From the sequence record MN508356.1: a stretch of DNA of 64,000 bases. One strand, 5' to 3'. Made by a program: the position numbers and the translations under genes. Positions 25,401-39,079 of the stretch are shown here, in pieces; position 1 is the first letter of the stretch; the number at the start of each line of letters is the position of its first letter. The stretch comes from Acinetobacter phage VB_ApiP_XC38. The notes beneath the pieces were generated by a model. The model worked only from the letters and a program-made list of their open reading frames with translations, was not told the DNA's origin and did not search any database.

Positions 25401-26385
25401 AGATGCTAAGTCTATGTTTGAAAAACTGTACACAGGTACTATGACTGAGATCTTTGGTTCTAAAGCTAAAGTTCGTGGTGTTCAGATAGAACGTAGTTGG
25501 CAAGAGTCTGTACGCTTGATGAAAGATATTATTGTTATTCGTAACGTTAAGACTTTGGTTTCTAACTTAATGTCTAACGCTATGTTGTTATCTGCTCACG
25601 GTATTAGTCCTTCTGATATTGTTAAAGATACAATGATGTCTATTCGTGCAGGTATGCAGTACCGTAAGGATATGGCTCGCTTAATGTCTTTACGTCAAAG
25701 ACAAAGAGCTGGTGTAGGTGACTTCAATGCTCAAGAGCAAGAAGCACTTAAGTTGGAAGATTCATTATCTCGTAACCCATTAGCAGGTTTTATTGAGGAA
25801 GGTATGATGCCTACAATCGTAGAAGATGTAGATCCATCTACTGACCATTACTCATATAAATCTAAGATGCAACAACGTATTGATGATCTTACTGAGAACG
25901 TACCTGCGTCTGTTAAGACTGCAGCTAAGTGGGCATTAGTATCTCCAGATACCCCGCTTTATAAGTTCTTGAACAACGCTACACAGATGTCAGACTTTAG
26001 TTCTAAGTATGTGATGTACAAGTACTACACTACTAAGGCTAAGGAAAAGCTAAGCCATGATGAAGCATTACAGATTGCTTCTGATAACTTTGTTAACTAT
26101 GACGTACCAACAGCTAAAGGCTTACAGTACTTAAACGATATGGGTATCGTAATGTTTACGAAGTATAACCTTCGTATTCAGAAAGCTTTATTCCAGTTAC
26201 TTAAGAAGCGTCCTGCTACTGCATTAGCTCAAGCTTTACTGGTTCACAGTTTCACTAACCTTGAAGCAGGTATTGATCCTATCGTTTGGAATCAGATTGG
26301 TAACCCACTCCGTAGTGGTGCTATGGGATTACCTTCTGCTCTAGATGAGCCATTACCTATCAAGATGATGACTAGCGTCTTCTGA
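16414..26385 (+). CDS. giant virion-encapsidated RNA polymerase (N4 gp50-like vRNAP)
   Basis: 3323-aa single ORF. T7-like RNAP motifs in the central region: A 'FESDGVTNGP' (~aa 1433), B 'KPIVTTSTYGAG' (~aa 1530), C 'NYHDADASA' (~aa 1796), with spacing similar to the N4 mini-vRNAP. Size and position are hallmarks of N4-like phages. Confidence 0.85.
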   Translation: MAGYKSLQVADALNRVTQQLTPQVTTGTLANSVYGRNTNAPDATAQTIQDLGQAQNYYNSIYSKTGSDYAQDAAVALGKGIVAVPQAAAGIVDLADAGVQALTGQEVQGGRFTKLLDDSGVRFKETQDILSGLYSDGTQRQLQGLAALPGMSTEQSLGQNLSSLGSTFGYVLDNPSLAVNTIIESLPQIAAGGVVGRGAAALGARSASGAIGEGVTMAGSAQANMDRNAEGYTTGNQALGAAAIGVLGGAVGLAGARFAGHQGAQDINNLAAGISAQTANKGFRSLGVGTATEAAEEAAQSSLENVITNISSGKDAIQGLNQDLVLGTLAGAGMGGVVNARSSVAGAALDAVQRAVEKQAERIKQAQPERSDTPTEELANTQSTAYNPTAAIVREAKSITSESTPEEIAAAKQRTDEVLNQAEESLANLQEMKVELEAEPVVLQNIQGAQAAIERFTASGEVEKAQRAQAILEQVLQPRLEKIQQIKEVASLDTIDGVLAERQAKVDEARDMHSKYSGLLNQVTENQTPSAQVFGAPQSFTAAQIESVIADPNTPELDKPVLRALADAVIAQNAVKDIDAVNQQVVGKKFDPNYRSTPQYMEQFAKAIQSGSVPAQVNLLREIKSFEQSHVQKAELVAQALEAAQTQGIRSQIIRTAQGQWTFNQGELLKGDEAKQNGAITVHPTPRGIAAMVKTNEYMQAEAQAITATRNAMEQMQSATGQTLPQQVQPEQPLSFDDAMDSYNLDARANYDFQPERRIEDPRTNTAPVSTDGIGSTEAAVPTRTQPTARTESGSDTTQVQTNNTGAANPVAEAERVASRSVSEDAATEVQTSVDEATKATNEEQVDEVVQPEVKTEAEPEAVSSAEKAEKNPERTAERKKEPKQRNLVIDGFNKRDTVLNRNPDFASRFLSRSSNIAAVESIVGEELTDKQKTAVNDFSKFAAYFDSKLDGLIGDKQLEYRFQDFNQFLLEDGKLPENVKTAVSAAMYSWLAENGSKTLNNEKDVAKLLLLNNVETVPTSVFNDFTAVGGHQQLIIASLGQKAMQALGLKVVSDVDPARKTKLESGLGALAMVSLVNAGYLERHTIKVVDFLKAQRMSNTELSDKEQSSLNKAILKAGNKEMSFLRPAVVDSAGTPATRVTKVIDSAKETKGIIQKMFGVQRDIKLPSLEPVTTTPNTFNRMGSQLPSYTKEMLEAAQKNGYKMSAPAMQFIDNVKREDLRELFGYVNPNADGSFDGMHKKFWEGQLAANQAVERAIDIIAEQRVNLGDDSKEFFFEHTSWTNTRSGYDAAFNLQANKMHRAVAGMSAHVVEVGFEPVMRDGQTTKFGEFLMAVAMSAEGVSDALGIQTVDKMSAESFLPKFQEYLARDYVQEGIEAMASILEGQGDKSDMAKVKSLVKEFDMGAMSVRALQALAQMHIAQRDGQRTFTSDIGFESDGVTNGPVITNVVLNTADADMLEAGGVFTDASKTNVPTNKELGTKDIYEQLGEVIKTAWVKYKANAKSYALASAKGLDSIYSAFGERKGAKPIVTTSTYGAGILSIKRANAREVLDAFYRGLEKAGKNNDMSAAQNLIDAVNQTIKFSNYEQGLRTPLAQVKGNLLELMLTPEQESALFYAADKQHGEAIKNTLDTAMADFNTVRDNLTKQAVSGFAVYDLIRNEAINEALKDTTDVIVDSKGNRQEGLTSDQMKKVLKSIERYTPSVVSGMGNMSTNKKQSSIPLMKQNTVWDDTAMGDQQHVFKGMWQGVNKSKFTIRSSIKRDAVQNPGVSGLVLIIQSIDAMITHTTIGKIPSQNYHDADASAVGKGKEMARIQNEAFVDGVMNTHVNREFVRALLNPLSIALDNPAFAKANKAALQEASTDLVKSVKDAYARDDAKLVNMLTWKNVNQYGTQGGHFVMTNAKRKQIVDARDQLKKDLAKDLALATKIVDAVSDKAKPTTIEGKLIADGTMKGSELVPMLQAELKQFQGKSGDTGKFSQFYDSMLDLITKQLPSNLEVNYFNEVDAPSNVVGLEEAVKNNNPAWYTTGKNGNPQINILRGDKPIRAQVLVHELVHAITVESIAQVRKEPIAHAKAAESLSKLDALYEDIKAKVKADPNATDLMKYATQNVEEFIATGFSYPEFVNYLDSQLAPKAARGKNRIVTALRAFVDSIMGVLESFTGRKYSSKDATALEALILDTTEFLGRAPVQTTGTQATIFGAPEQARSKVATFTSRQVFDALDSNLDPKFKLHLQSMMTHVSDTIYGGLNDQLTSNPDGTWSPERAWEEYLEKGSLDTTESSTTAGFRMTEQETFAVESLYAALVAGLKDKSMSQVYAELNKSFNAAAKKLKPENFYEGDWATASREDKRDAQDMYDFIFKYGPENKEPLARFTAMAIGSEQFNKLLGFSAKDEASGTTDTFEKLVEHTNTALDYVGGLMTNSSANQQIKNRVALLAKELARIDAKTREQSISKVEQQLEKITDFTDGLSDKLRDQVVKLANHDKIANSRFTSVRLASNVTRLSARGDLWTTLDVVKDLHNFHSPNERLGIIGEIVNEAGNNDATKNSVEKLMRITKLNNQMKENIRDTTTKNVMSTFEENGQYLTKDDKTAITTMLRADVQSLTGNYSTKEIADLYMNESFLNKEIAALEKQVNDWTMLNRAKQLGKYMITGLGSPGLAKNAQLIVSGFSGEVVDIRDKRVDLIDRVATLYAIRYTDSKTKGRLAAVMKRELKNKTNGIDTSIKFHKELADNAKKVLFADNITSVMKGYVPEVTNPNKDVRIAHNEAETKLLKEQFYTEVKTLGKDKSDPTKSTARLFYTEEANLQRLVSGAIEIVSTNRKGTAVSMDSKEFNRALAAAKQVPTSPSYDPMADKEIYMIPSYDTKGNVTGFNYEMSAHNRDTLLERNNDFAELLGSYAATNFNKVTVPNQNDAVIEAAYQDYKDNFADNPRAYVTVGPSSNDVGLREVWAMLPESSRKKAIATFGPDGMVVRNDVLLTMFGYRKYSANQSFDKMEDAKSMFEKLYTGTMTEIFGSKAKVRGVQIERSWQESVRLMKDIIVIRNVKTLVSNLMSNAMLLSAHGISPSDIVKDTMMSIRAGMQYRKDMARLMSLRQRQRAGVGDFNAQEQEALKLEDSLSRNPLAGFIEEGMMPTIVEDVDPSTDHYSYKSKMQQRIDDLTENVPASVKTAAKWALVSPDTPLYKFLNNATQMSDFSSKYVMYKYYTTKAKEKLSHDEALQIASDNFVNYDVPTAKGLQYLNDMGIVMFTKYNLRIQKALFQLLKKRPATALAQALLVHSFTNLEAGIDPIVWNQIGNPLRSGAMGLPSALDEPLPIKMMTSVF

Positions 26386-26389
26386 CATT

Positions 26390-26422
26390 AAAAAGCCCCT
26401 CAGTAGAGGGGCTATTCTTTTT
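26390..26422. terminator. bidirectional rho-independent terminator between convergent genes
   Basis: A-run, hairpin 'gcccctc-agta-gaggggc', then TATTCTTTTT. vRNAP (+) and the 82-aa ORF (−) converge here. Confidence 0.7.
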
Positions 26423-26429
26423 GTGCTAC

Positions 26430-26678
26430 CTAAGTAGCGATATCAAGCTGTACATCAACACCAGAGCTAAGCTCACTAATAGTCTTTCCATGTTTACTAT
26501 TTCCTAAGTGCTTGCGTGGATTACCGCACATATCACAGGAACATCGAGTAGGAGTTTCAGCATGAATGCCTATGGCTTTCTCACTTGCTTTCCAATCATT
26601 GTCCTTAAACTGTTTTGCAGCTAATTGCTTCTTGCGTTTAGCTTGACGGATACGATATTCACGACCACGTTGATTCAT
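26430..26678 (-). CDS. hypothetical basic protein with Cys cluster
   Basis: 82 aa. 'RCSCDMCGNPRKH' suggests possible metal binding. K/R-rich N-terminus. Confidence 0.4.
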   Translation of the reverse strand: MNQRGREYRIRQAKRKKQLAAKQFKDNDWKASEKAIGIHAETPTRCSCDMCGNPRKHLGNSKHGKTISELSSGVDVQLDIAT

Positions 26679-26688
26679 TGGTACATCC

Positions 26689-27075
26689 TTATTTGATACG
26701 TTTCATTTTGCGTAAGAAGTTTTCTAACGGCTTACACCATACTAAATCATTCTCACCTCTGTATACAACAGTAGGTGGATATTCAGGTCTAGTAGAGTGC
26801 TCATTAGCAATAGCCATAATGGTATAGATATTACCGTTGATATGTTGGTACAGCTGTCCGTGTTTTGGGTAGTAGTATTGAGCTACCTTACGGACTGCTT
26901 CTTTAAGAGACTTGGTTCCATCAATACCTGATGCACGACCTATAAGATCCTTAATACTGATATTGAAGTTAACACCGTCAAAGTTAATATCAATTAGATT
27001 ATCTGGTGTTTTAAAAGAAGCTATCTGACCCTTATACATTGGTGCGAGTACTGCACGTATTTCATCTGGTGTCAT
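26689..27075 (-). CDS. hypothetical protein
   Basis: 128-aa ORF, coding-like composition. Confidence 0.45.
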   Translation of the reverse strand: MTPDEIRAVLAPMYKGQIASFKTPDNLIDINFDGVNFNISIKDLIGRASGIDGTKSLKEAVRKVAQYYYPKHGQLYQHINGNIYTIMAIANEHSTRPEYPPTVVYRGENDLVWCKPLENFLRKMKRIK

Positions 27076-27097
27076 GGTTTAATCCTTAACAAAAAAT

Positions 27098-27121
27098 AGC
27101 CACCTATTCAGGTGGCTTTTT
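27098..27121. terminator. bidirectional hairpin terminator overlapping stop of the small membrane protein gene
   Basis: AAAAAAT then 'agccacc-tattca-ggtggct' then TTTTT. The TAG of the 27104..27286 gene lies in the stem. Confidence 0.55.
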
Positions 27122-27286
27122 CTTTAGTTTATTAAAGGCTCTTGCTGCATAGACAATTGCCCAACATAAACCAATGAATGCAGCAATGATTGCTACAACT
27201 TGGAATACAAGGACTAATGCACTAACTACAGTAAAAGCCATACATACTGCAGCTACTATGCCGCAAAGCCAATAAACAATACGCAT
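27104..27286 (-). CDS. small two-TM membrane protein (class II holin-like topology)
   Basis: 60 aa with two hydrophobic helices and a charged C-terminus 'RAFNKLKKKPPE'. Confidence 0.45.
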   Translation of the reverse strand: MRIVYWLCGIVAAVCMAFTVVSALVLVFQVVAIIAAFIGLCWAIVYAARAFNKLKKKPPE

Positions 27287-27720
27287 TAGAACAATGAAGT
27301 ACGTAACTGTTCAGGAGATGGAACATCACTGTTTGCAGCAGGTTCTGCTACCATAGTTTTGATTTCATCAACGCTAGGCATTACATCTTCAACAGTAGAA
27401 GGTTCTACTTGACCAGGTTCTTCAGCTTGTGGCTCTGGCTCAGGTTCTGGCTCCACAGGAGCTGTTACTTGAGGTTCATGAACTTCAGCCTTAACTACAT
27501 CAGTAGGAGTGCCATTTACAACACTTGCAGTATCAACAGATTCCTCTGTTACTTTGAGAGTTGCACGGATGCCTGTTTGTGGTGAGTTAATGAACTTAAC
27601 TTCTTCCAGTTCTGCATCAGAGATTACTTGACCGTGTTTAGCAAGTAAGTCACGTACAGCTTCTAATAAGTCGCTACGATCTAACTCGATATCGATTTGT
27701 TTCTTAAACTTGATTTGCAT
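27286..27720 (-). CDS. hypothetical acidic protein with PEPEPEPEP tract
   Basis: 144 aa. '(PE)n' repeat and acidic C-terminal half. Confidence 0.45.
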   Translation of the reverse strand: MQIKFKKQIDIELDRSDLLEAVRDLLAKHGQVISDAELEEVKFINSPQTGIRATLKVTEESVDTASVVNGTPTDVVKAEVHEPQVTAPVEPEPEPEPQAEEPGQVEPSTVEDVMPSVDEIKTMVAEPAANSDVPSPEQLRTSLF

Positions 27721-28279
27721 TTTTGTATTCCGAAATTAGCTGCTTGAACTCTTTGGTTTGAGCTGCAGCGTAGATTGATACGATGGCATCTGCCATGTGT
27801 TCAGCTTTGCTGATATTTACTTTACCTTGATGCATAGGCCAAGGTGCTTCTGGATGTCTAGCTACACACCATCGTACGACATCCCCTTTGGTGGCTTTAG
27901 GGTCACCGATAATCTTCTTCACGGATTGGGGAGTTACATATACGAAGTGGTCTTCTTTGACTGAACCAAGTACACCCATACAGATGCCTTGGCCTTTTGC
28001 TGCAGATGCGTTCTGACTACCATACGGTACTTCAACAGTTACAATGTCTGCACCATCGATAGCATTACGCACACCTTCACATAGCAGTTCAGCAGACTCA
28101 ATATCTAGCTGACTTTTACGTTTGGTATGATCCTCTTTGATACCTGTGAGAATCACACGCATGTCAATGATCTTTAGATCACCTGTGGCTAATGAGACAT
28201 TACCAATGGCAATGCCCCAGTTACGCCAAGAAGGATCACACCCTACAATTTTAAGTGAGGTCTTCATCTTCCGGTACAC
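27704..28279 (-). CDS. RuvC-like Holliday junction resolvase / RNase H-fold endonuclease
   Basis: 'LKIVGCDPSWRNWGIAIG' resembles the RuvC N-terminal 'LGIDPGSRVTGYGV'. 'VEVPYGSQNASAAKGQG' resembles RuvC '[20 protein letters not shown]'. 'EHMADAIVSIYAA' resembles 'DAADALAIAITHC'. Confidence 0.55.
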   Translation of the reverse strand: MYRKMKTSLKIVGCDPSWRNWGIAIGNVSLATGDLKIIDMRVILTGIKEDHTKRKSQLDIESAELLCEGVRNAIDGADIVTVEVPYGSQNASAAKGQGICMGVLGSVKEDHFVYVTPQSVKKIIGDPKATKGDVVRWCVARHPEAPWPMHQGKVNISKAEHMADAIVSIYAAAQTKEFKQLISEYKNANQV

Positions 28280-28607
28280 CCTTAATAGGGAATGTATCTA
28301 AACGCTCAAGCGCATAGTTTAAACCTGCTAAGAAGCCTGCTTTGTGATCTTCGTTACCATCGATAACGATATCTTTACCTTCAGAATCAACTTCACCTGT
28401 AGGAATATCAATACCCACATCAGCAGGCATTTGAAGCTTGTGATGCAGGTCTTGAACAAGGCCAGCATGCCATGCAGTAACTAAGTTACCCATCTTTTGC
28501 ACATCATCAAGATAGATAGCATTGGGACTTACATCCATTGCTTTCAGATCTTTTTCTGTAGGCATTTTACGTGCAAACGGGATTACTTTGTTTTCAGATT
28601 CAGACAT
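28251..28607 (-). CDS. hypothetical protein (start reassigned to ATG at 28607)
   Basis: ORF track 28251..28673. AAGGAA RBS sits 6 nt before the ATG at 28607 (MSESENK...), which removes a 74-nt overlap. Confidence 0.4.
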   Translation of the reverse strand: MSESENKVIPFARKMPTEKDLKAMDVSPNAIYLDDVQKMGNLVTAWHAGLVQDLHHKLQMPADVGIDIPTGEVDSEGKDIVIDGNEDHKAGFLAGLNYALERLDTFPIKGVPEDEDLT

Positions 28608-28785
28608 CTTGTTTTCCTTGTACCATGATTGGACGACCTTCACGCTTAGCAGCATCAAGGAGTTCTGCAGCACGTAAACGTGCTAATTCAGCTTCGTAGT
28701 GATACTTACGAGCCAATGCGTTTGACTTAGCGTCCAAGTCTTTAGCCGGAACGAAGTCAATAAGTTTAGCTTGTTTATAAGCCAT
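28600..28785 (-). CDS. hypothetical small protein
   Basis: 61 aa. AGGAAT RBS 'aggaattaaaccATG'. Immediately downstream of a UUCG-tetraloop hairpin. Confidence 0.4.
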   Translation of the reverse strand: MAYKQAKLIDFVPAKDLDAKSNALARKYHYEAELARLRAAELLDAAKREGRPIMVQGKQDV

Positions 28786-28805
28786 GGTTTAATTCCTTGA
28801 ATGGT

Positions 28806-28821
28806 AGGGGCCGAAGCCCCT
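28806..28821 (-). other. stable RNA hairpin (UUCG tetraloop on − strand transcript) 3' of the SSB-candidate gene
   Basis: 'aggggc-cgaa-gcccct' (+ strand); the − strand loop is 'ttcg'. No T-run after it. Confidence 0.45.
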
Positions 28822-28827
28822 AGTTAA

Positions 28828-29532
28828 TTAGAACAAGCCAGATGGAGTTGCAGGAGCTGCACCTACAGACTTCTGATTAGCAGAGGCAGTACCTTTAACT
28901 TCTACAGCTTTAAGTTTGCCTTTGTTGCTCTTTAACCAACCATCAAGAGCAGAAGCTTCAGCACCATCACGTAGTTCAACTACTGATTGACGAGTGTCAG
29001 GGTGGTAAGCTTTGTTGATTGAGTTTTTAACACGAACTTCACCAGTGAACTCACGAGTGTTAGTTTCTTTGTTGTAGTTGGTCTTTTCATATTCTTCTTC
29101 AGTAATACCGAGAAGAACACGTTTACCCATCATTGGAATGATTGCAGGTACGTCTTGAGGAAGCTCTTTCTTAGCATCCCAGTCATACAGCTTAACTGTA
29201 CGAGTTTCAACTTCACCTGCTAATTCAAACAAGCCTTTGCCTGTAGTTAACAATGCAATGTTGTTTACCAATTGGAAACCTGGAAGGTAATGTTGCTTAC
29301 CATCTTTTTCGTAGGTGTTACCACCATTTTTGTTACTGATGTAGATCTGTTCGCTGTAGTCTTTACCGTTGTCCAATTTGAACATTAGTGTAACGAAGCG
29401 AGCACCTGAAGCTGCTGCACCTGCAAATGCCATAGTTAATACGCCAGGATATGCGTCTGTATCTAATGTGCGTTTGCTATAATCTTGTTCTTGCTCAACT
29501 GTACCAGTAGCGCCTGTACCAAATAATGACAT
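28828..29532 (-). CDS. candidate N4-type single-stranded DNA-binding protein (by position after the primase and gp44-like genes)
   Basis: 234 aa. Gene order primase > P-loop ATPase > this ORF mirrors N4 gp43-gp44-gp45 (SSB). No OB-fold motif recognisable by eye. Confidence 0.35.
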   Translation of the reverse strand: MSLFGTGATGTVEQEQDYSKRTLDTDAYPGVLTMAFAGAAASGARFVTLMFKLDNGKDYSEQIYISNKNGGNTYEKDGKQHYLPGFQLVNNIALLTTGKGLFELAGEVETRTVKLYDWDAKKELPQDVPAIIPMMGKRVLLGITEEEYEKTNYNKETNTREFTGEVRVKNSINKAYHPDTRQSVVELRDGAEASALDGWLKSNKGKLKAVEVKGTASANQKSVGAAPATPSGLF

Positions 29533-29543
29533 GATTGTAATTC

Positions 29544-30074
29544 CTATTTAATACTTCCATGGTTTTCATGGAAGCCTAATTCAAGTGATTTTGCCTTTCG
29601 TTCCTCGACTGCTTTGTCAGGATCATCGAAAGACTTCTGATAAACCTTCTTACCATTTAAGGTAATTTCGGCTACGTATTTACCCGTACGTTCGTTATAC
29701 CAAATGCCATGCTCACCAACTTTGGTGTCTGGTCTTCTAGACCTGTTACGCGCATTCTCTGCTTTGGTTACTTCACGTAGGTTTGTCCAACTGTTATTGC
29801 TTCGATTCTGGTCTATGTGATCTACTTCACCAGTAGGCCATTTGCCTGTTTTAATAAACCAGATTAAGCGATGCTCAGCATAGGACTTTCCAAACAAGGA
29901 CACCTGACGGTATCCAGTTCGCTTAATTACACACCCAGCACGGCTACCCGGAACAACAGACTTACTGTGTTGATTACCAAGCCAAGTAAGATGTCCAGAA
30001 AGATCATCATATTTTAATACCTTTGCTAAAAGCTCTTGAGTAAGTTCGTCTTTACTCTTCTTTGTAAAAATCAT
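29544..30074 (-). CDS. HNH homing endonuclease with AP2-type DNA-binding domain (paralog 1 of 3)
   Basis: 'EHRLIWFIKTGKWPTGEVDHIDQNRSNNSWTNLREVTKAENARN' (HNH) plus 'GIWYNERTGKYVAEITLNGKKVYQKSFDDPDKAVEER' (AP2-like). Confidence 0.75.
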   Translation of the reverse strand: MIFTKKSKDELTQELLAKVLKYDDLSGHLTWLGNQHSKSVVPGSRAGCVIKRTGYRQVSLFGKSYAEHRLIWFIKTGKWPTGEVDHIDQNRSNNSWTNLREVTKAENARNRSRRPDTKVGEHGIWYNERTGKYVAEITLNGKKVYQKSFDDPDKAVEERKAKSLELGFHENHGSIK

Positions 30075-30795
30075 GAACTATATCCAATAACTGTTGTGCA
30101 TCGTTATCAATATATGTTTCAGTCTGTGAGAACATTCCAATAGGGCCACGAATACGTTCACCAGTGGTGTTCTTTGTAATGCGTGTTTGGAATACGTGCT
30201 TATAACCAACAAGCTTGTCATCTTCAGTGATGTTCAAGTATTGGTTTTCGTACTCTGTAAGGTCGCGTAATGGAACCTTCTTCGTGTTCACGTTAAGCGA
30301 GAAGAATGATTCAATACCTACAGCTTTTAGAGCACCTTTAACTTTTGACTGGACTTTACGTAAACCTGTAGTCTCGTCAATCATCTCTTCGATATGAGTT
30401 AATATGATGACGTTCTTTGTAGACTTAGCAACATACTGCTGCATCAAGTTTTTAAAGAACTGTGAGTAGTCCTGCCAACGAGCGCGAGTGTCTGCTGCAC
30501 CTACAATGTGTACAGACTCAAACATTTCCATCATGAATGTTGCAGTATCGATAACGATAGTATGCACATGAGGTTGAGACTCAGCCCATACAAAGCCTTC
30601 ATAGATCTGATAAGGATCTGTGATTACTTTACGAATGAACTGGTTACGGAATGGTAACTTCTTACCTGCTTCACAGTTTAAGTAAAGCACCCCTTCTGGA
30701 TTACGGAGATTCATCAAAGATGCAGACTTACCTGCACCAGACTCTCCTCCAATAAGGATTAAGTTATCATTTGTTTGTTGAACTGCGGCTGTCAT
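30052..30795 (-). CDS. RecA-like P-loop ATPase (Sak4-like / N4 gp44-like)
   Basis: Walker A 'GGESGAGKS', Walker B-like 'HTIVIDTATF'. True start likely the ATG at 30795 (GGAG 7 nt upstream); the track start at 30807 is TTG. Confidence 0.5.
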   Translation of the reverse strand: MTAAVQQTNDNLILIGGESGAGKSASLMNLRNPEGVLYLNCEAGKKLPFRNQFIRKVITDPYQIYEGFVWAESQPHVHTIVIDTATFMMEMFESVHIVGAADTRARWQDYSQFFKNLMQQYVAKSTKNVIILTHIEEMIDETTGLRKVQSKVKGALKAVGIESFFSLNVNTKKVPLRDLTEYENQYLNITEDDKLVGYKHVFQTRITKNTTGERIRGPIGMFSQTETYIDNDAQQLLDIVHDFYKEE

Positions 30796-30857
30796 GTATA
30801 GCTCCAAAATGGTTAAGAGATTTCTCTCTTATTTGCGTAAGAGCGCACGGAGTGCGC

Positions 30858-33008
30858 CTACTTACTTTTACTTTGAATTGATTTCAAGATGGTTTGCTGT
30901 AACTCGTCTTCCGACAACTTATCAACAAGTTTGTTATTGAGTGATTTAACACGATCACCAATCTCAACGAAGTTTAGACCACTTTCGTAAAGCACCATTG
31001 CATAGTTATACAACTGCTTATTACGGTTACCGTCACCAGTGTTGTTAATCATCCAACGTTCAAGATTGTCTAATTGTCCTTGGTCTTTGAAACGAGCTTC
31101 ACGCTCTTCACTCTTAGACGTACGAGGGATGTATGGAAGTACATCAAACAATTGACCATCGTTAATCCATACTTCATCAGACTCAGCAGTAAGCCATTTC
31201 TTATTACGTTGATTGCAAGACTCATCCATTTCAAATGGTAGGTCTTTCATAACAGCATTCATAAATTGCTTATATTCTTCTTTGTCTAATTTCAGAATGT
31301 AATTAGTTGGAATGATTACACGATAGCGATCTAAACCATCAGCATCTTGATGACGCTTGGTTGTATAGAATACCGCTTTGTAATCCTTCAATAGTTCTTT
31401 GGCTGTGGCTAATGGAAGTGTTCCATCAACGTCAAGCACAATCATATTGAATCCAGGGATTGTAGATTCATCACGGCGTAAGCCATTATCGAAATGATGG
31501 TTTGCCCAATGAAGATCTTTGACCTTACCGAAGTTAGCCAGTTTATCGAACTGGGTCAGCTTAGGCTCGTACCCTTCAGCAAGCTTATTACTTACTGACA
31601 TGATTAGTTCATCCAAGTTTGTTTGCTTGAGTGATTCACCACGCAAGAACAAAATGGAGCCATCATAAGACTTCTTGATGATTACGTTGTTACGGTATCC
31701 CCAAGCTGTAGCATATTCAATTAACTGATCTTTCTGTGGTTTAGAACCACGGAAGCAAGGTAATGCTTGCTCAAGGTCAGGTAATGTAATGCCTGTTTCA
31801 CAATCCGCTAAATACTTAGCTACCTTTTCATAATCGTACTCAGGTTTCATTAGACGGGCAAAGTGTTCACCAGAATCTTCTGTTAAACGCATTGCTGCTT
31901 CAAGATGAGCAATTGTGATGTTTGGTGAGTAATCACGGAATGCGTAAGCACCTGCTAATTTAAGTACCTTAAAGAAGCGGTTAACTAATTCTGAATGCAG
32001 AATAGTCTCATGCTCTTTGAGTTCCTCAGCTCGTTTATCACAGCTGATTTTGTACTCCATTAGGTAGATAGCTTCTGCCTGCTCGATACGAATGATCTTG
32101 TTCAAGTTAGAGATGTCAGCTAGTTGTTCTAATGAACAAGACAGCGCATCCAACTGAGCATCGTTACTGCTATTGAACATCTGGTTTACGAGAGTTGCTG
32201 CATCATCTGTAACGACCTTACGGACTTTTGGAATATATCCAAACAGACAGCGGCGAGCATATCCCATCTCCAACATTTCAACTAAGTGCTTCTGAGTTAA
32301 ACCAGAATCAAGAAGTTTAGATGGAGTACCAAACAACAACATGTTTGTAGGCGTGTTGCCTTCAATACGTTCGTATCGTGTAGTCTCCGCAGATGACTTC
32401 ACCAATTTATCCTTGATCGTACCTGTATCGTACAATTCTAAGAATGCGTTAGTTACTTCAGTCTGCCCAACCAGGTTAGCTCCAATTTCATCAATCTGTA
32501 GATTGACTCCACCTGCTTTAGCTAAGTTGAGTTTATGACGTAACTGTTTAACTGCAGGAACAGTAGCAGAGTCAAATGAGAACAGTAGAGCACCAATTGA
32601 GTTGAACTCTTTTAATAAGCCTTCGTACTCATCAGTAGGTTGTGTTCCTTTTCGGATCGCACGACTGTGTGCAATCTTATTCATGTTCTGTTCTGCAGCT
32701 AATGGGAATGTATTTTCCATGAACGAATCACGGAAGCGATTAATGACACTATTCTCAATCAGACCAGTAGAGTAGCCCTTACCAGTACCTGAAGGAGATA
32801 AGTTCATTGCATAGATATTAATTGGAAGAGTTGATCCTCCCCAACCTTGAATACCTGCATGCATCTGAGAAGCCAGTACTCCCCAGTAGTAAGAACTAGC
32901 TATACGAAAGAACATACGTTCTGAGTTCTGAGTCTTAGCACACATGATGTCTGTAAGCATCTCAGTAACCGGATCGTAAGCCATGTCTTCAAAATTTTTA
33001 AGTTGCAT
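30858..33008 (-). CDS. DNA primase-like replication protein (N4 gp43-like)
   Basis: 716 aa. P-loop-like 'LSPSGTGKGYS'. TOPRIM-like DxD segment 'NMIVLDVDGTLPLATAKELLKD'. Sits between nuclease and ATPase genes in the replication module. Confidence 0.45.
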   Translation of the reverse strand: MQLKNFEDMAYDPVTEMLTDIMCAKTQNSERMFFRIASSYYWGVLASQMHAGIQGWGGSTLPINIYAMNLSPSGTGKGYSTGLIENSVINRFRDSFMENTFPLAAEQNMNKIAHSRAIRKGTQPTDEYEGLLKEFNSIGALLFSFDSATVPAVKQLRHKLNLAKAGGVNLQIDEIGANLVGQTEVTNAFLELYDTGTIKDKLVKSSAETTRYERIEGNTPTNMLLFGTPSKLLDSGLTQKHLVEMLEMGYARRCLFGYIPKVRKVVTDDAATLVNQMFNSSNDAQLDALSCSLEQLADISNLNKIIRIEQAEAIYLMEYKISCDKRAEELKEHETILHSELVNRFFKVLKLAGAYAFRDYSPNITIAHLEAAMRLTEDSGEHFARLMKPEYDYEKVAKYLADCETGITLPDLEQALPCFRGSKPQKDQLIEYATAWGYRNNVIIKKSYDGSILFLRGESLKQTNLDELIMSVSNKLAEGYEPKLTQFDKLANFGKVKDLHWANHHFDNGLRRDESTIPGFNMIVLDVDGTLPLATAKELLKDYKAVFYTTKRHQDADGLDRYRVIIPTNYILKLDKEEYKQFMNAVMKDLPFEMDESCNQRNKKWLTAESDEVWINDGQLFDVLPYIPRTSKSEEREARFKDQGQLDNLERWMINNTGDGNRNKQLYNYAMVLYESGLNFVEIGDRVKSLNNKLVDKLSEDELQQTILKSIQSKSK

Positions 33009-33009
33009 T

Positions 33010-33624
33010 TTAAGTACCGTGCTTTGGGTTAAAGTTTAATCGTGCATACTCGGAATCTCTTGCTGCTAATGCGTCAGCAATCTTATCAAAAGTTCCTATA
33101 TGCTTTTGAGCTACACGTACCACAAATTTACCTAAAGGCGTTGTGCGTATGCCTGTGTGCCCAGAGCTGTTATCTGTACGTTTAGACATGTTTCTATTGT
33201 TCTCAGCTTGAGTAACCTCTGCTAAGTTACAAAGTCTGTTATCTAATCCATTATGGTTATCGTGATCAATGATAGTAGGAAGGTAGCCATGTACGTACAA
33301 CCAAATAATGTGATGCACCTTATAAAGTACGTTACCTATACTGACTTGCTTATAACCATTTGATACAGCTCCAACAGAATCGCCTACGTTAGAGTTTCTT
33401 GTAGGAAGTCTCCAAGTAAGTTCTCCAGTTAAAGCATCGTAGTTAAAAAACTTTTTAACCAGTGCTTGATTAACTACTTGATTAGATAAACTAGAGCACA
33501 AGTCACATAGATGACTTATCTTGTTTAACTTGGATGGTTTATGGTTCACTTTGTAATGGGAATTACATTCATGACACTCACATAATGAATGCGAGCTGCT
33601 AAGCTTTTGTATAATCTTAAGCAC
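33010..33624 (-). CDS. HNH-AP2 homing endonuclease (paralog 2 of 3)
   Basis: 'HHIIWLYVHGYLPTIIDHDNHNGLDNRLCNLAEVTQAENNRN' plus 'GHTGIRTTPLGKFVVRVAQKHIGTFDKIADALAARD'. Cys-rich N-terminal extension. Confidence 0.7.
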   Translation of the reverse strand: MLKIIQKLSSSHSLCECHECNSHYKVNHKPSKLNKISHLCDLCSSLSNQVVNQALVKKFFNYDALTGELTWRLPTRNSNVGDSVGAVSNGYKQVSIGNVLYKVHHIIWLYVHGYLPTIIDHDNHNGLDNRLCNLAEVTQAENNRNMSKRTDNSSGHTGIRTTPLGKFVVRVAQKHIGTFDKIADALAARDSEYARLNFNPKHGT

Positions 33625-33634
33625 TGGTTAGTTC

Positions 33635-34615
33635 CTAAATTTTTAATTCACCCGATTCAAGATATGCATCCTTTTGGGTACATACACTGAATGCGGAACA
33701 ATAAGCACATGCTGTTACTTGTCCTTTAACTACGTCAATACGACCAACACTCCCATCGTTAATGAACTTGATTTGAGCGTCACGAGGGTTGTCAAAGTTT
33801 TTGGTACTACGACCAGTAGCTTTAGGATCCTTGTAGTACTTCCAAGTGTCAGGCTTACGCCATAACTCATCATCAGTACAGTGTGGTAGATCCTTCTCAT
33901 CTAAGTTTTGACACTCAATGAGTTTACGAACCTTGTTAGTAACAAAGCGTTCTACTTCCTCAACTGGAAGTAATTCAAATTCACGTGCAATGATTTGTGC
34001 TGGAGGATAATTATCACGATCTGATAGATAGCGATTCTTATTCCAGTCTGTAAAGATGAAGATAATGGACATACGTTCATCAGTAATAATGTCGGGATTA
34101 AGCCAACGATAGATACTGCCTTGCAAGATATAGTCTTGGTCTTTATTTCCAGACGTATACGAGAAGGTTCCTGTAGTCTTAAAGTCAAACACACGACCAT
34201 CTGCAATGAAGTCAAACTTACCAGAGATAGTTACTCCTAGTACTTCGCGTTTCTTACGAAGTTCTAAGTACACTGGTATTGTTGGTTTACCAGAAGGTAC
34301 GCTTTCAGGGTTTACCATAAAGCGTTTAACAACCTTATCTGATACACCAAGACTTGCTAGGATTTCAGGAAGCTTGTCTGATAGCCAAGCTCTTTCAATA
34401 GCATCGTGGATAGCTGTACCAATACGAGATTTAATCATTCCGCTTACATCAACCTCACCAAGTCCTGGAGGGACTCGTTTAGATAAGATGACTTGGCGTA
34501 CTGACTTCATGAGACTTGTAGCAGATAAACCTGCTTCAGTTCTGTCATACGTATCGTGAGCTAACCAGACTGCTACTGGCAGTGGTAGTTCTGTTCTATT
34601 TGAATAGTTAGCCAT
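33635..34615 (-). CDS. PD-(D/E)XK nuclease with C-terminal Cys cluster (Cas4/RecB-like exonuclease)
   Basis: 'ISGKFDFIADGRVFDFKTTG' (D...D/ExK). C-terminal 'CAYCSAFSVC' Fe-S-type cysteines. Start reassigned to the ATG at 34615 (AAAGGAG RBS). Confidence 0.5.
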   Translation of the reverse strand: MANYSNRTELPLPVAVWLAHDTYDRTEAGLSATSLMKSVRQVILSKRVPPGLGEVDVSGMIKSRIGTAIHDAIERAWLSDKLPEILASLGVSDKVVKRFMVNPESVPSGKPTIPVYLELRKKREVLGVTISGKFDFIADGRVFDFKTTGTFSYTSGNKDQDYILQGSIYRWLNPDIITDERMSIIFIFTDWNKNRYLSDRDNYPPAQIIAREFELLPVEEVERFVTNKVRKLIECQNLDEKDLPHCTDDELWRKPDTWKYYKDPKATGRSTKNFDNPRDAQIKFINDGSVGRIDVVKGQVTACAYCSAFSVCTQKDAYLESGELKI

Positions 34616-34662
34616 TACTTCTCCTTTGAGAGCACACGACCACCCGAAGGGTGGCCTGTAGA

Positions 34663-34887
34663 TTACTCTGCAACTACAATCCAATCTTCAGATAAAAGAT
34701 CAGTTTGACTGGCTAACCAAGGCACTCGATCACCTTGAGCTGTATACATGTAGATATACGGTAAGGTCATCTTAGAATGTTCGTCTGGTTCCTGTAATGC
34801 TAAATGCATACCTTTACCATTCCACCCTGTCCGTGCAACACGGAAGCCTTGTTTAAGTAATTCAATTGCTTCACCGAACTTAACCAT
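34663..34887 (-). CDS. hypothetical protein
   Basis: 74-aa ORF coupled to nrdB (overlapping stop/start). Confidence 0.35.
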   Translation of the reverse strand: MVKFGEAIELLKQGFRVARTGWNGKGMHLALQEPDEHSKMTLPYIYMYTAQGDRVPWLASQTDLLSEDWIVVAE

Positions 34888-35926
34888 TGAGGATCTCCTG
34901 TTCTAGTTCGTAGTCTGTTTTAAAGTCAGGATCTGGATAAGCCCATGCACCTGTTAAGCTGCCAATAGAATAGTTTGTACTAGCTGCTTCAAAGAAGTTC
35001 ACTAGACTAGACTTGGCAAATAGAAGTCCTACTTGTGGAAGGATTTCATCTGTTACATCAGGGTAGAGTTTATCTACACCAATGTTTAATTGACTGATAC
35101 GAGCATTAGCTAACTGCTTTAAGAACACTTCAATCTGATCAATAGATAGATCACGTAAGCTACCCTTAGCGTAAGCACACTTAGCTAAAGCAATTCCTCG
35201 CTTTACTGCATTGTGGAACATACCCATAATGGTTTGAATTTCATGATCATCTAATAGCTCATCATGTTCTTCTAGTTCTTGGTTGAATAACCAAGTAAGA
35301 CCTTCACAGTGTTGGTTTTCATCACGTGCTGACCATGCAACTACTTCTTGACCTAAACAGGTCATCTTACCGAAACGCTGAGCGTTAATAAGCATTAAGA
35401 AGATTCCATAGATACCAATACCTTCACCACATAGGTGTTTAACCAGTGTGTAGATACGATCTTGGAATGAGCCAGATTCTGCTTGAGCAATCATGAACTC
35501 ACGCTGATTAAAGACTTCATCAATCTCTAACATCTCGGAGTATTTGATTTTCTCAATACCGAACTGGTCAGGCAGCATGTCATAACACTGTACGTGTGTA
35601 GCTTCACGCTGAATGGTCTGTGCTAACCAGAAGCGTTGTTCCGGTTGTGTGTACCACTTAGCTAGGTTCTCAAAGTAAGAACCTGCTACATCTACGTCTG
35701 CTTGAGTGAAGTATAGAAGTAAGAACTCGTAGATAGCTTTTTCATCTTTATCTAGAGTTTTCCAATCCTTAACGTCTTGGCCTAACTTCTTAACTTCTTC
35801 TATAGTCCAGTTCATCTTACGATGGGTTTCAGCTAAGTTATATAGCTCTGGATAACGGAAAGGTTTCCAGTAATCGCGTGAGTCTGTTAGACCCAACGCA
35901 TCATGTTTTTCTTGGTTAAAGGCCAT
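34880..35926 (-). CDS. nrdB: ribonucleotide reductase small (beta) subunit
   Basis: 348 aa. Ferritin-like E/H-containing helices ('EATHVQCY', 'NQHCEGL'). Adjacent to the alpha subunit. Confidence 0.6.
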   Translation of the reverse strand: MAFNQEKHDALGLTDSRDYWKPFRYPELYNLAETHRKMNWTIEEVKKLGQDVKDWKTLDKDEKAIYEFLLLYFTQADVDVAGSYFENLAKWYTQPEQRFWLAQTIQREATHVQCYDMLPDQFGIEKIKYSEMLEIDEVFNQREFMIAQAESGSFQDRIYTLVKHLCGEGIGIYGIFLMLINAQRFGKMTCLGQEVVAWSARDENQHCEGLTWLFNQELEEHDELLDDHEIQTIMGMFHNAVKRGIALAKCAYAKGSLRDLSIDQIEVFLKQLANARISQLNIGVDKLYPDVTDEILPQVGLLFAKSSLVNFFEAASTNYSIGSLTGAWAYPDPDFKTDYELEQEILNG

Positions 35927-36182
35927 TGATTAGCTCCAATAATTCAGGGTGGTATTCATAGTGAAAGTCAGATCTACGTTCTAGGATTTTTTCAGCCATG
36001 TTTTTAGCTGATGGTGTTCCAAAACGAGACTCTACTCCTACGAATAAATGAAAGTAGTTATGCCGTTTAAACACAATCGTACCTTCACTCTTACTGATAG
36101 GCAGGTACTTACGTGTACCTGCTATTGTTTCTATGGCCTTGGTTAACTGCTCTACAGTTAGTTCCATTGGTTTATCCTTCAC
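35916..36182 (-). CDS. hypothetical protein between nrdA and nrdB
   Basis: 88 aa with no CxxC motif, so not an obvious glutaredoxin. Confidence 0.4.
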   Translation of the reverse strand: MKDKPMELTVEQLTKAIETIAGTRKYLPISKSEGTIVFKRHNYFHLFVGVESRFGTPSAKNMAEKILERRSDFHYEYHPELLELINGL

Positions 36183-38166
36183 AACTTACACATGCAGTGA
36201 ATAAGTCTGCACGGTTATAATCAACCGTATCTTCTGATTTGGTTTCCTTAGCAAAGGCATTAGATGATGCCAAAGCTTTCGTACGAATGTAGTAGCGAGA
36301 CTTACAGCCTTTCTTCCACATTTGGAAATGCACAGCATTCACGTATGTACGAGGTACACCCGGTAAGAAGAATAAGTTAGTAGAGATAGCTTGACATACA
36401 AACTGTTGGGCACATGCTACATGTTCAACAATCCACATCTGATCAATCTCAAATGCTGTACGTAGAACTTTCTTCTCATGAGCTGACAAGAAGTCTAAGT
36501 GCTGAACTGAACCATCGTTATCAACGATAGATTTAATTACAGCTGCATTATTCTTACCGTACTTCTCAAGACACTTGAGTAGGTATGGTTCGATCATCTG
36601 GAATGTTCCAGAAGTAGTTTGCTGAGGGTAGATGTTTTGGAATCGTGGTTCACGACTTGGAGTTACACCACCACAGATTAAGCTGTTAGTTGCGGTAGGT
36701 GCATCAGCAAGTAAGTGACTATTACGATGACCAGACTTCTGCATATCAGGAGCAGGGCCACGTTTAGCACCTAGTTCACAAGTAGCTTCAACAGCTACAC
36801 CTTTTACCCATTTGGTTACGTTGTATGTGATGTCTAAAGCTTCACGAGATTCGTAAGGTAGGTCACATAGTTTGAAATAAGAATCCCAACCCATAGAACC
36901 AAGACCTACAGCTCGTTCTTGCTTAGCAGAGAATACTGCTTTACGTAAACCCATGAATCGCTCTTCAACAATGTTGAGACAGATTGCTTCTACTTCTGTG
37001 TCACTGAGCATAACGCCAGTAGCATCGAAGTGTGATGTACGTAATGACTTAGCTAACTCTTCCCATGGGAAGTCTTTGGTACAAGACCAGATAGCATTCT
37101 GAATGAAGTACTCAAGTACGTTATCCAAGAACTCAATCATGTCTTTAATGAACTGGCGGTTACCCTTCCACTCATTATAAGTAAGCATGTTGTATGAGCT
37201 TAGACAGCATACTGCTGTACGTTCTTCATTGTTTGCTAACGTAATTTCTGTACAGATATTCACGTTGTTAAAGCGTAGACCTAGTGCTACTTGCTCTTTT
37301 GGTAGAGCACGCTGACATGTATCTTCAAAGACGATAAATGGACAGCCTGTTTCAAAAGGTAATTCAAGGATTAGTTCCCATAGATAGCGAGCACTAATTA
37401 CATCCTTGGTTACGCCTTTATGGTCAACAAGATGCCACTCTTCATCATTAAGTACTGCATGCATAAACTTGTCAGTAATCTTAATGGCTTGGAAGATGTT
37501 ACGGCTACGCTTGTTTGGATCACCAGACATCTTACGAGATTCAACGAACTCTACGACTTCTGGATGGTCACAACGGATGTTTCCACCATATACAGCACGG
37601 CGGTTAGAACCTTGATGCGCTGCAGTGACCATAGAATCCTCTACGTGGTAGAAAGGAACTAAACCTCCTGATACTCCACCTGTAGATGTTTTCGAGCCAC
37701 TAGGACGCAATGGTGACCAATCAGCTGCATATCCACCACCATTAGATGCAATCCATAAAGATTCACTAAGATGGTCTGCAATACCTACACGACTATCAGG
37801 TACATAACCTGTGTAGCATGAAATAGGTAATGGGCCGTATACAGACTCGTATGCATGATGACTAAAGTTCTTAGCCATGTCGTTATAGAACTTAATACGT
37901 ACTGGTGCGTTGGCTAGAACAGGTGATGCAGGCCCGGCCCAGTGGCGTTTGAAATAACCGTACATACGGAGGGCATGAGCTTCATTACTAGCAAACGCAG
38001 TTGCACAACGCATGTATGCGTCTTGAGGAGATTTTTCATTTTGTACCAAGTAACGATCTTTTACTGTTTCACGACCTGCTTCAACCATGTGGTTATCAGC
38101 AGTGTAATCAATATGTTCAGATAGTAGACGTTTAGGGAGTGGTGCATTAATAGAAGGACGAATCAT
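36172..38166 (-). CDS. nrdA: ribonucleotide reductase large (alpha) subunit, class I
   Basis: Catalytic 'VNICTEITL' (NxCxE) and C-terminal 'ACVSCEG' redox cysteines. Start reassigned to the ATG at 38166 (AGGAA RBS), which removes the 68-nt overlap with thyX. Confidence 0.85.
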   Translation of the reverse strand: MIRPSINAPLPKRLLSEHIDYTADNHMVEAGRETVKDRYLVQNEKSPQDAYMRCATAFASNEAHALRMYGYFKRHWAGPASPVLANAPVRIKFYNDMAKNFSHHAYESVYGPLPISCYTGYVPDSRVGIADHLSESLWIASNGGGYAADWSPLRPSGSKTSTGGVSGGLVPFYHVEDSMVTAAHQGSNRRAVYGGNIRCDHPEVVEFVESRKMSGDPNKRSRNIFQAIKITDKFMHAVLNDEEWHLVDHKGVTKDVISARYLWELILELPFETGCPFIVFEDTCQRALPKEQVALGLRFNNVNICTEITLANNEERTAVCCLSSYNMLTYNEWKGNRQFIKDMIEFLDNVLEYFIQNAIWSCTKDFPWEELAKSLRTSHFDATGVMLSDTEVEAICLNIVEERFMGLRKAVFSAKQERAVGLGSMGWDSYFKLCDLPYESREALDITYNVTKWVKGVAVEATCELGAKRGPAPDMQKSGHRNSHLLADAPTATNSLICGGVTPSREPRFQNIYPQQTTSGTFQMIEPYLLKCLEKYGKNNAAVIKSIVDNDGSVQHLDFLSAHEKKVLRTAFEIDQMWIVEHVACAQQFVCQAISTNLFFLPGVPRTYVNAVHFQMWKKGCKSRYYIRTKALASSNAFAKETKSEDTVDYNRADLFTACVSCEG

Positions 38167-38197
38167 TTTTATTTCCTGTATTAGAGGGAGCGGGATG

Positions 38198-38827: not shown

Positions 38828-38830
38828 AAT

Positions 38831-39079
38831 TTATTCCTGATCAGGGTTAAATTTAATTTGCTGTGCTACATAGGCTCGATACTCTGTACCGAGGATTAAC
38901 ACCGTACCGTGGGCTGTAGCTTCCACTGGTGTTTCTGGTTCCCACTCTGCATACAATGAACCATCATCGTATTCTACAGAGCAGTGATCTTCATCGTCAT
39001 ACCACTGTGGGTACAGTAATAAACCAGAAGGTTCAGATACTAGATAATCACATTGATCGAGTAGCTCTTTTACATTCAT
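38831..39079 (-). CDS. hypothetical acidic protein
   Basis: 82-aa ORF, first gene of the − strand nucleotide-metabolism operon. Confidence 0.4.
   Translation of the reverse strand: MNVKELLDQCDYLVSEPSGLLLYPQWYDDEDHCSVEYDDGSLYAEWEPETPVEATAHGTVLILGTEYRAYVAQQIKFNPDQE

Follow-up and report, generated by a model that had tools for sequence, protein, structure and literature searches.

Which signals start the transcription of the minus-strand genes in the N4-like Acinetobacter phage VB_ApiP_XC38, and are the small perfect hairpins that lie ahead of some of these genes among them? The question is raised most directly by the hairpin at 30843-30857 in the 64,000-nucleotide (nt) stretch of record MN508356.1 analysed here, called the window throughout, where the hairpin lies at the junction between a primase-like and a Sak4-like gene. 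A sequence-only reading of this DNA had joined it to three others, at 221-237, 62699-62713 and 63262-63279, as candidate promoters of the type used by coliphage N4, and all four were found to be present exactly as quoted. That grouping is revised here in that its definition is sharpened, a hairpin at 34640 is added, the one at 63262 is removed and the polymerase is probably reassigned for three sites. The four hairpins now retained, referred to by their first positions as 221, 30843, 34640 and 62699 (Table 1), are very probably promoters for a phage RNA polymerase. The mechanism is already known from the phages N4 and LUZ7 and is seen here in a new lineage.

By BLAST the window, about 64 kb long, belongs to an N4-like (Schitoviridae) Acinetobacter phage. 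Positions 1445-2991 align to N4 67002-68500 in reverse, so that the window runs opposite to N4 as it is usually mapped. Its + strand encodes an open reading frame (ORF) of 3323 amino acids (aa; 16414-26385) and the terminase, portal and capsid genes, and its - strand the replication genes. The closest deposited genomes are those of the Acinetobacter phages nACB1, which is in the same orientation, and At2, at about 70-82% nucleotide identity. Since the genes for the heterodimeric phage RNA polymerase II (RNAPII) and the early genes are found at 73-79.6 kb in nACB1, the early region of the present phage lies beyond the right end of the window. The right genome end is likewise outside the window, and the missing part was supplied by metagenomic contigs 93-99.7% identical to it. 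A wider sample of 80 diverse N4-like contigs, 611 kb in total, was fetched through the Sak4-like protein, and a flank profile was made from 39 unique sites of the clade aligned on the centre of the loop.

The hairpins form a family with a perfect stem of 6-8 base pairs (bp), mostly 6, that is closed by C:G and topped by a G-N-A triloop. The loop is on the + strand, the one that serves the minus-strand early and middle genes as template. On the + strand of the window, C-GNA-G hairpins with stems of at least 6 bp occur four times against 0.14 expected, the maximum in 200 dinucleotide shuffles being 2; on the - strand the same class occurs once, at 47965, inside a small minus-strand ORF. The two full-length relatives have nine on the + strand and none on the other (nACB1), and seven and none (At2), and the 80 N4-like contigs have 49 on the template strand versus 8 on the non-template strand. 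All four + strand members of the window are intergenic, intergenic DNA making up 6.7% of the window (P ~2e-5), and the late-gene blocks of the + strand contain none of the four. Hairpins 30843, 34640 and 62699 begin 0-8 nt past the upstream stop codon and 25-87 nt ahead of the next ATG. In close relatives four further members lie past the window end on the same strand, at window-equivalents of about 64.4, 67.9, 69.5 and 70.8 kb, which brings the number outside the terminal repeat to about seven for this phage species. The loop itself varies in the window (GGA in 221 and 30843, GAA in 34640 and GTA in 62699), and in the Acinetobacter clade GAA is the commonest.

Table 1. Hairpins and associated features of the window (positions on the 64,000-nt stretch).
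Feature	Position	Strand	Remarks
Hairpin ACTGTAC-GGA-GTACAGT	221-237	+	7 bp, C-GGA-G triloop; in the presumed terminal repeat
Hairpin GCGCAC-GGA-GTGCGC	30843-30857	+	Candidate middle-type hairpin promoter
Initiation flank tttGCGTaaga	30832-30842	+	Template C at 30836, 14 nt from the loop centre
Hairpin CCACCC-GAA-GGGTGG	34640-34654	+	Missed by the sequence-only reading; flank gaGCACacga
Hairpin GGGCAC-GTA-GTGCCC	62699-62713	+	Flank AACCCAACCAC-aaag at 62684-62698
Presumed left terminal direct repeat	1-338	.	Inner boundary inferred from nACB1
ORF-free structured RNA, about 650 nt (655-nt stretch)	63062-63716	-	Conserved; intrinsic terminator 63071-63104, then a T-run
Stem-loop GACUGUA-UCCA-UACAGUC (RNA sense)	63262-63279	-	Variable helix of the structured RNA
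Hairpin TGGCAG-GGA-CTGCCA	39110-39124	+	G:C closing pair; divergent control region; membership uncertain

The family cannot be delimited by the A-C-[GGA]-G-T tip proposed earlier as its signature, for the second pair is variable across the 39 unique sites and ACGGAGT as a heptamer shows no enrichment (6 matches over the two strands versus 3.3 expected, with 13 of 100 shuffles reaching 6). Nor is the GGA loop the defining feature, since the hairpins at 39110 and 44495 have this loop and a G:C closing pair, and members of the family also have GAA or GTA. A scan of the window for GGA hairpins found nothing special in the GGA loops, 39110 and 44495 being the extra ones; the C-GNA-G class was biased in both strand and position. 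GNA loops with other closing pairs showed no strand bias, and DNA folding energies were alike for both strands with a nearest-neighbour method that has no triloop bonus.

The placements first given for 30843 and 62699 are correct, as is the strand of the loops. All loops are on the + strand, the template for leftward genes. Hairpin 30843 abuts the primase-like stop codon (30858) and is 44 nt from ATG 30798 of the Sak4-like AAA_24 gene, and 62699 begins 1 nt past the upstream stop codon and is 87 nt from the ATG (62611) of a helix-turn-helix (HTH) gene. The added hairpin 34640 begins 8 nt past a Tad2-like stop codon, with 25 nt to ATG 34614 of a gp42-like gene; the intergenic space is 48 nt in all and consists of ribosome-binding site, flank and hairpin. 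It had also been held that the structure is under selection, and this is borne out by the stems of 221, 30843 and 62699, which covary at orthologous sites. At the junction of primase and Sak4-like genes the hairpin is CTGAGC-GAA-GCTCAG in nACB1 and CCGTAC-GAA-GTACGG in At2, and relatives with a 98% identical Sak4-like protein carry AGTGCAC-GTA-GTGCACT, a double change of C:G to T:A. Close relatives have CCTCCC-GTA-GGGAGG at the 34640 site, a compensatory change of A:T to T:A in surroundings where the small ORFs differ. Ahead of the HTH gene, orthologues share the flank 'gaacccaaccac' but have different stems (GGGCAC in the window and in contig L103, CCGTAC-GAA in nACB1, ACAGGGC-GAA in At2 and CGGTAC-GAA in L100 and L101). 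Also at the site near window-equivalent 70759, past the window, ACCCTCC-GGA-GGAGGGT in one close relative (L010) stands against ACCCTGC-GGA-GCAGGGT in two others (L009 and L013), with a C:G to G:C change.

The junction was also followed through the 80 contigs. A GNA-triloop hairpin within 150 nt upstream of the Sak4-like gene was found on the template strand in 26 of the 80 and on the other strand in 2. Among 21 distinct sequences 99.2% of cells were paired and all six pairs had double changes, a covariation score that was reached by none of 500 shuffles and that slid registers did not come close to; these pairing statistics are inflated, as the set was built from perfect hairpins. The recurrence of the hairpin at this junction and its strand bias are independent of that selection.

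A further regularity was found outside the stem. The 39 loop-anchored sites give the template flank consensus AASCAC-NN-AA-[stem]-GNA, with A at 8 nt from the loop centre in 35 of 39, C at 12 in 25, A at 13 in 30, C at 14 in 33 and A also at 16-17. When the sites were anchored on the base of the stem instead of on the loop the signal was blurred, and a register measured from the loop is what a loop-docking protein that initiates at a set distance would be expected to leave. The template C at 14 nt from the centre is at 30836 for hairpin 30843, at 34633 for 34640 and at 62692 for 62699. On these positions minus-strand starts are predicted near 30836, 34633-34635 and 62692-62694, which would give leaders of about 38, 19 and 81 nt containing the ribosome-binding sites. 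Perfect stem-loops were also noticed in two of the predicted leaders, just downstream of 30843 (30814-30831, 7 bp with a 4-nt loop) and of 62699 (62635-62658, 10 bp with a 4-nt loop), and these may be 5′ stabilising or regulatory hairpins.

DNA mini-hairpins of the d(GCGAAGC) type have a GNA triloop in a C-GNA-G core with a sheared G-A pair; they are a structural motif and not a genetic element. Because of this core, only one strand of such an inverted repeat would give an exceptionally stable hairpin. In the N4 promoter complex the loop has the sheared G-A geometry of GNA mini-hairpins. Extrusion and stability of the hairpin depend there on the C:G pair that closes the loop and on G and A as its 5′ and 3′ bases, and the N4 virion RNA polymerase (vRNAP) reads -11A/G, -10G, -8G and +1C (PMC4496689). 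A scan of N4 1-50 kb with the present definition returned GTTGC-GAA-GCAAC (90-102), AAGAAGC-GGA-GCTTCTT (557-573) and AAGCTGC-GGA-GCAGCTT (4546-4562). These three are the mapped promoters, all on the template strand and with CC at 11-12 nt, and the first is inside the terminal repeat of 390-440 bp. In the same 1-50 kb no such hairpin was found upstream of the middle genes, and none before gp44, the counterpart of the Sak4-like gene.

The window hairpins are thus like N4 P1, P2 and P3 in being template-strand hairpins with a stem of 5-7 bp (7 bp in 221, 6 bp in 30843, 34640 and 62699), a 3-nt G-N-A loop and a C:G closing pair, in that stem bases away from the loop vary provided that pairing is kept, and in that the terminal repeat contains one copy, some 100 nt from the end that enters first. 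The N4-type anatomy claimed by the sequence-only reading therefore stands for 221, 30843 and 62699, but not for 63262, which is a helix of a structured RNA. Differences from N4 were found in the flank, which is CCA-(A/T)AA in N4 and AASCAC-NN-AA here, and in the presumed start, a template C 11 nt from the loop centre in N4 as against conserved C at 12 and 14. The centre of the loop is a purine in 221 (G), 30843 (G) and 34640 (A); close relatives have GTA at the 30843 and 34640 sites, and judging from these sequences a purine at the centre appears not to be required in this clade. The hairpin-reading residues sought in the 3323-aa vRNAP were K114, R119, W129, D901 and R904 of the N4 mini-vRNAP. 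The protein is diverged from that of N4: BLASTP aligned the C-terminal domain only, a three-sequence profile aligned the catalytic block only, and phmmer against PDB gave no match.

We know of hairpin promoters mapped by experiment before middle or replication genes in LUZ7 alone. Nine early start sites were found in that phage by ONT-cappable-seq; most have a hairpin whose stem is at least 4 bp and whose loop is 3 nt, and transcription begins with G 13-14 nt from its centre (PMC9163698). Four middle start sites were found as well, in which GC-rich hairpins of at least 6 bp with a loop of 3-4 nt stand about 15 nt upstream of a G start, and they were attributed to RNAPII with the cofactor Drc (PMC9163698). 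In our scan the short C-GNA-G hairpins of LUZ7 comprise one within the repeat (81-91), one at 792-802 and two in tandem at 3663 and 3695; the latter two have GTA loops 32 nt apart before Drc and match the published tandem early sites (PMC9163698). It also shows four GC-rich GGA hairpins, at 8238 (after the RNAPII gene), 9521, 35252 (heading a middle block) and 39354. The last, at 39354-39368, is at the primase and Sak4-like junction, where GCCGCT-GGA-AGCGGC is accompanied by the flank tCGaAAGA, to be compared with gCGtAAGA in the window; its closing pair is T:A and that of the window hairpin C:G.

Hairpins 30843, 34640 and 62699 resemble the LUZ7 middle type in having 5 of 6 GC pairs each, a 6-bp stem, a 3-nt loop and a place in the replication region, and differ in number, four being mapped in LUZ7 and about seven found outside the terminal repeat of this phage species. 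With the LUZ7 early type they share the G-N-A loop, the C:G closing pair, the template strand, the tolerance of GTA and the presence of one copy in the repeat (PMC9163698, PMC3715699). The LUZ7 early stems are 4-5 bp and every member here is 6-8 bp, and against the nine LUZ7 early start sites one early candidate is visible in the relatives of this phage. A 17-nt hairpin AGCGTTC-GGA-GAACGCT was found to be identical in LUZ7 (9521-9537) and on the template strand of an Acinetobacter-phage-like contig (L100, 31-47). At 72475 in nACB1, AGCGTCT-GGA-AGACGCT stands about 1 kb downstream of the RNAPII gene, and the LUZ7 copy at 9521 is about 1.3 kb downstream of its own. The hairpin shared by the contig and LUZ7 hints that there may be sequence-specific recognition in the subclass with GGA and 7 bp.

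Hairpin 221 has to be considered apart from the other three, as it is the only one in the terminal repeat; 30843, 34640 and 62699 belong to the region of replication and middle genes that follows the RNAPII genes. The ends of nACB1 form an exact direct repeat of 301 bp (1-301) finishing '...cagatagttttt', and a motif homologous to this repeat end is found near window 325-338. The start of the window is the junction seen in a collapsed assembly of a close relative (L013). A hairpin identical to 221 is found in both repeats of nACB1 (183-199 and 79520-79536), and the At2 counterpart AGTGTAC-GGA-GTACACT shows a compensatory change of C:G to G:C. In L013 the 221-type hairpin has the early genes immediately on its left and so precedes them for leftward transcription. 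The loop is about 110 nt from the entering end, as compared with 96 in N4 and 86 in LUZ7, and no gene lies upstream of it within the repeat. Its template has T at 12-13 nt and C at 15 from the loop centre. Because it is in the terminal repeat like N4 P1, hairpin 221 is probably an early promoter for the vRNAP that corresponds in position to P1. Its functional copy would sit in the right-end repeat, outside the window, and would fire leftward into the early genes.

The proposed mechanism has four steps. We infer that negative supercoiling would first extrude the short inverted repeat, upon which the template-strand G-N-A triloop closed by C:G would form an unusually stable mini-hairpin with a sheared G-A pair. 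A polymerase would then dock on loop and stem. Its first nucleotide would be a G, paired with a template C of the conserved flank AASCAC-NN-AA about 12-14 nt 5′ of the loop centre, and transcription would proceed leftward into the minus-strand genes. The polymerases would be the phage's own T7-like RNA polymerases. The virion polymerase, encoded by the ORF 16414-26385 and injected, would fire 221. The middle-stage promoters, 30843, 34640, 62699 and the four past the right end, would be used by the heterodimeric RNAPII with a single-stranded DNA-binding cofactor of the Drc type. Their targets would be the Sak4-like, SSB and recombination genes, the gp42-like and primase genes, and the block of HTH, helicase and DNA polymerase genes.

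This division of labour, with the vRNAP on 221 and RNAPII plus a Drc-like cofactor on 30843, 34640 and 62699, is given slightly better than an even chance. RNAPII is favoured for the three sites because they are downstream of the RNAPII genes, have GC-rich stems and a flank that 221 lacks, and because a Drc-family protein is found in a relative. Both RNAPII subunits are clear in close relatives (phrog_2166, 1.5e-88; phrog_2051, 4e-146), with their genes outside the window. Beside the gene of the small subunit, L013 encodes an early protein of 104 aa (6101-6415, - strand) that hits phrog_6271 near full length (E 1.6e-5), the family containing LUZ7 Drc (gp14, E 5e-37). Pairwise BLAST gave no similarity of this 104-aa protein to Drc, and the early proteins of the close relative gave no match to the N4 gp2 family. 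The minus-strand blocks have only about a third of the sigma-70-like matches expected (12 versus 36 in 26000-40000 and 15 versus 41 in 49000-64000), as would suit genes that are transcribed by phage polymerases and avoid host promoters. Taken literally, the sequence-only reading would assign all the hairpins to the vRNAP; of the four members only 221 sits where vRNAP promoters sit, and 30843, 34640 and 62699 are probably read by another polymerase.

Several observations count against the promoters as described here, the inflated pairing statistics at the junction being one. The N4 vRNAP determinant -8G, which the specificity loop contacts, is absent; this position, the second stem base from the loop, is A, A, C and A in 221, 30843, 34640 and 62699, and it is variable across the 39 sites. 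N4 needs a purine at the loop centre, and 62699 has T there. Neither C12 nor C14 of the other sites is found in the flank of 221 (CATTAAA). Only one such hairpin was seen in the early region of a relative, as against three in N4 and nine early start sites in LUZ7. The LUZ7 GGA hairpins were equated with the mapped middle promoters by number and description alone, and the match to the Drc family is weak and comes from the early region of a relative, outside the window.

The alternative that survives best keeps the hairpins as promoters and changes the polymerase. All of them, even those 30-45 kb from the early end, would be promoters for the injected vRNAP, and early transcription would cover, and help to pull in, most of the minus-strand half. 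Every member does share the loop and closing-pair anatomy of the N4 vRNAP promoters, all stems are of 6-8 bp, so that an early class with short stems like that of LUZ7 is not clearly set apart, and 30843 and 221 agree in their GGA loop and in having T at 12 nt from its centre; moreover, there is one hairpin in the canonical early region, so that the vRNAP may need the others. We nevertheless regard this as unlikely, as the N4 scan showed none of these hairpins upstream of middle genes, the GC-rich hairpins of at least 6 bp in LUZ7 fire at the middle stage (PMC9163698), the flank CATTAAA of 221 is unlike the AASCAC of the others, and a relative has a Drc-family protein.

More doubtful is the explanation that the hairpins act in RNA, as 3′ stem-loops of the upstream messages (terminators, or processing or stability elements) with the flank as an RNA signal. 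Two observations speak for it and hence against promoters: the hairpins start 0-8 nt past stop codons, where such elements would sit, and 62699 was caught by a lax terminator scan because its RNA strand continues into a weakly T-rich tail. Read-through transcripts would in addition necessarily include the stem-loop. Hairpins 30843 and 34640, however, are without a U-rich tail and were not called as terminators, and the genuine terminators in the same blocks have stems of 7-13 bp, loops of 4-8 nt and T-runs. The asymmetric feature, G-N-A closed by C:G, is on the non-coding strand and is the DNA mini-hairpin motif that N4 needs; for the RNA version, a U-N-C triloop, we know of no special stability. 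With no gene upstream of 221 in the repeat, one nACB1 hairpin that stands alone ahead of the structured RNA, and a flank register that fits the starts of N4 and LUZ7, an RNA role is considered improbable.

Still less credit is given to double-stranded palindromic sites for a phage protein, be it a regulator or a replication or recombination factor, or to priming signals. Inverted repeats in intergenic DNA would suit such a role, and the core of the related hairpin 39110 is invariant in seven lineages as an operator would be. The stems of the family vary freely with pairing kept, which is the signature of a structure and not of a sequence-specific duplex, and a symmetric site would not give loop strand biases of 26 to 2 and 9 to 0, so that this explanation is very improbable. 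Chance inverted repeats have next to no probability and are effectively refuted for 221, 30843, 34640 and 62699, for even though hairpins of 6 bp are common (137 inverted repeats with a stem of at least 6 bp and a loop of 3-5 nt in the window) and the heptamer is not enriched, four were found where 0.14 were expected, all intergenic, on one strand only and at orthologous positions in every relative examined.

With the hairpins as promoters, their distribution bears on the family at large. A template-strand hairpin stands before the Sak4-like gene in about one third of the sampled N4-like contigs and is absent from N4. It is possible, at somewhat below an even chance, that the C-GNA-G hairpin with a C about 14 nt away is a general middle-promoter code of a large part of the Schitoviridae, or else that the vRNAP of this clade reads hairpins over about 50 kb. 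If the code were general, hairpin recognition would be the normal mode of the small heterodimeric RNAPII too, not a peculiarity of the giant virion polymerase, and the AT-rich middle promoters of coliphage N4 would be the exception. For the uncharacterised Acinetobacter N4-like clade the analysis provides a promoter map and a consensus (AASCAC-NN-AA, a 6-bp stem and G-N-A), with predicted starts that are precise to about 2 nt. The many natural variants make promoter finding by RNAPII directly testable. In the engineering of therapeutic Acinetobacter phages the elements of 15-17 nt would have to be preserved, or could be reused, when genes are inserted, and the accessory ORFs around hairpin 34640 already vary between close relatives.

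Hairpin 63262 was removed from the family. It had been taken for a promoter heading a long noncoding leader, and is instead a variable, covarying helix inside a conserved structured RNA; as DNA (GACTGTA-TGGA-TACAGTC) its loop is 4 nt long and closed by A:T, and the flank motif is missing. Homologues have small helices of their own at this place (GCCATA/TATGGC, CCCT/AGGG, CCTG/CAGG and CCTT/AAGG). The RNA was aligned on the transcribed (-) strand for seven sequences, those of the window, nACB1, At2 and four metagenomic contigs, and consists of invariant blocks separated by variable helices. RNAalifold gave 114 consensus pairs for the seven, 46 of them with compensatory changes, including a long-range helix of 22 bp and the terminal intrinsic terminator. 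Rfam returned nothing for 62900-63800 at E up to 1. An exact 20-mer of the RNA gave no match in viral contigs, where a two-block pattern recovered only a contig already known; in metagenome contigs the three matches to the two-block pattern were spurious. The structured RNA was found only in this Acinetobacter N4-like clade and may be a new large phage RNA. In nACB1 it is directly preceded by a hairpin of the family and adjoins a tRNA cluster, a placement beside tRNA genes that recalls ROOL and GOLLD. No tRNAs were found in the window, and Rfam over the whole window gave nothing at the gathering threshold. Next to the structured RNA, a 111-aa gene (62715-63050, - strand) is intact in the 99.7% identical L010, and in the window a change of TGG to TAG (W42*) leaves ORFs of 41 and 59 aa.

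Three further hairpins were left outside the family. The one at 39110 was rejected as a firm member, its closing pair being reversed and its stem never varying; the core GGCAG-GGA-CTGCC is invariant in seven lineages and shows no covariation. It is 30 nt to the right of ATG 39079, where the first gene of a minus-strand block starts, and a conserved rightward TATAAT follows it after about 17 nt. Its flank gtCAAAAGA has C at 14, and a sigma-70-like match, CTGCCA-17-TATAAT, overlaps it at the -35 position. The hairpin could be the head promoter of the block, a protein-binding site, or both. The region 39110-39147, between the minus-strand block and the tail-fibre gene, is probably a late-promoter control region, and for the tail-fibre ORF a start at ATG 39175 is more likely than at 39109. 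For the GGA hairpin at 44495, which is in coding sequence and has a G:C closing pair, chance is the best reading. Chance is probably also the origin of AGTAAC-GTA-GTTACT at 47965-47979, the minus-strand C-GNA-G hairpin. It precedes the endolysin gene by about 140 nt, is absent from nACB1 and lies in a small minus-strand ORF homologous to nACB1_040; an exact-protein look-up for this region gave no match. A single-protein scan of viral contigs and the other exact-protein look-ups were also without matches.

The genes around the hairpins showed some variation of their own. The ORF of 74 aa upstream of 34640 (34663-34887, - strand) encodes a protein with a Tad2-like Thoeris anti-defence domain (PF11195, E 1.5e-26), and a Tad2-like gene was found in none of the relatives with a 98% identical Sak4-like protein. 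Two of these contigs (L108 and L109) have an ORF of 46 aa on the other, downstream side of the hairpin, and a third (L110) has no small ORF. ORFs for HNH endonucleases differ in presence among near-identical relatives (L007, L011 and L012 versus L008 and L010; L009), where they adjoin the gene of a MoxR-like ATPase and precede the helicase gene. In nACB1 the DNA polymerase gene is split by an HNH gene, and all these HNH genes look like active homing elements.

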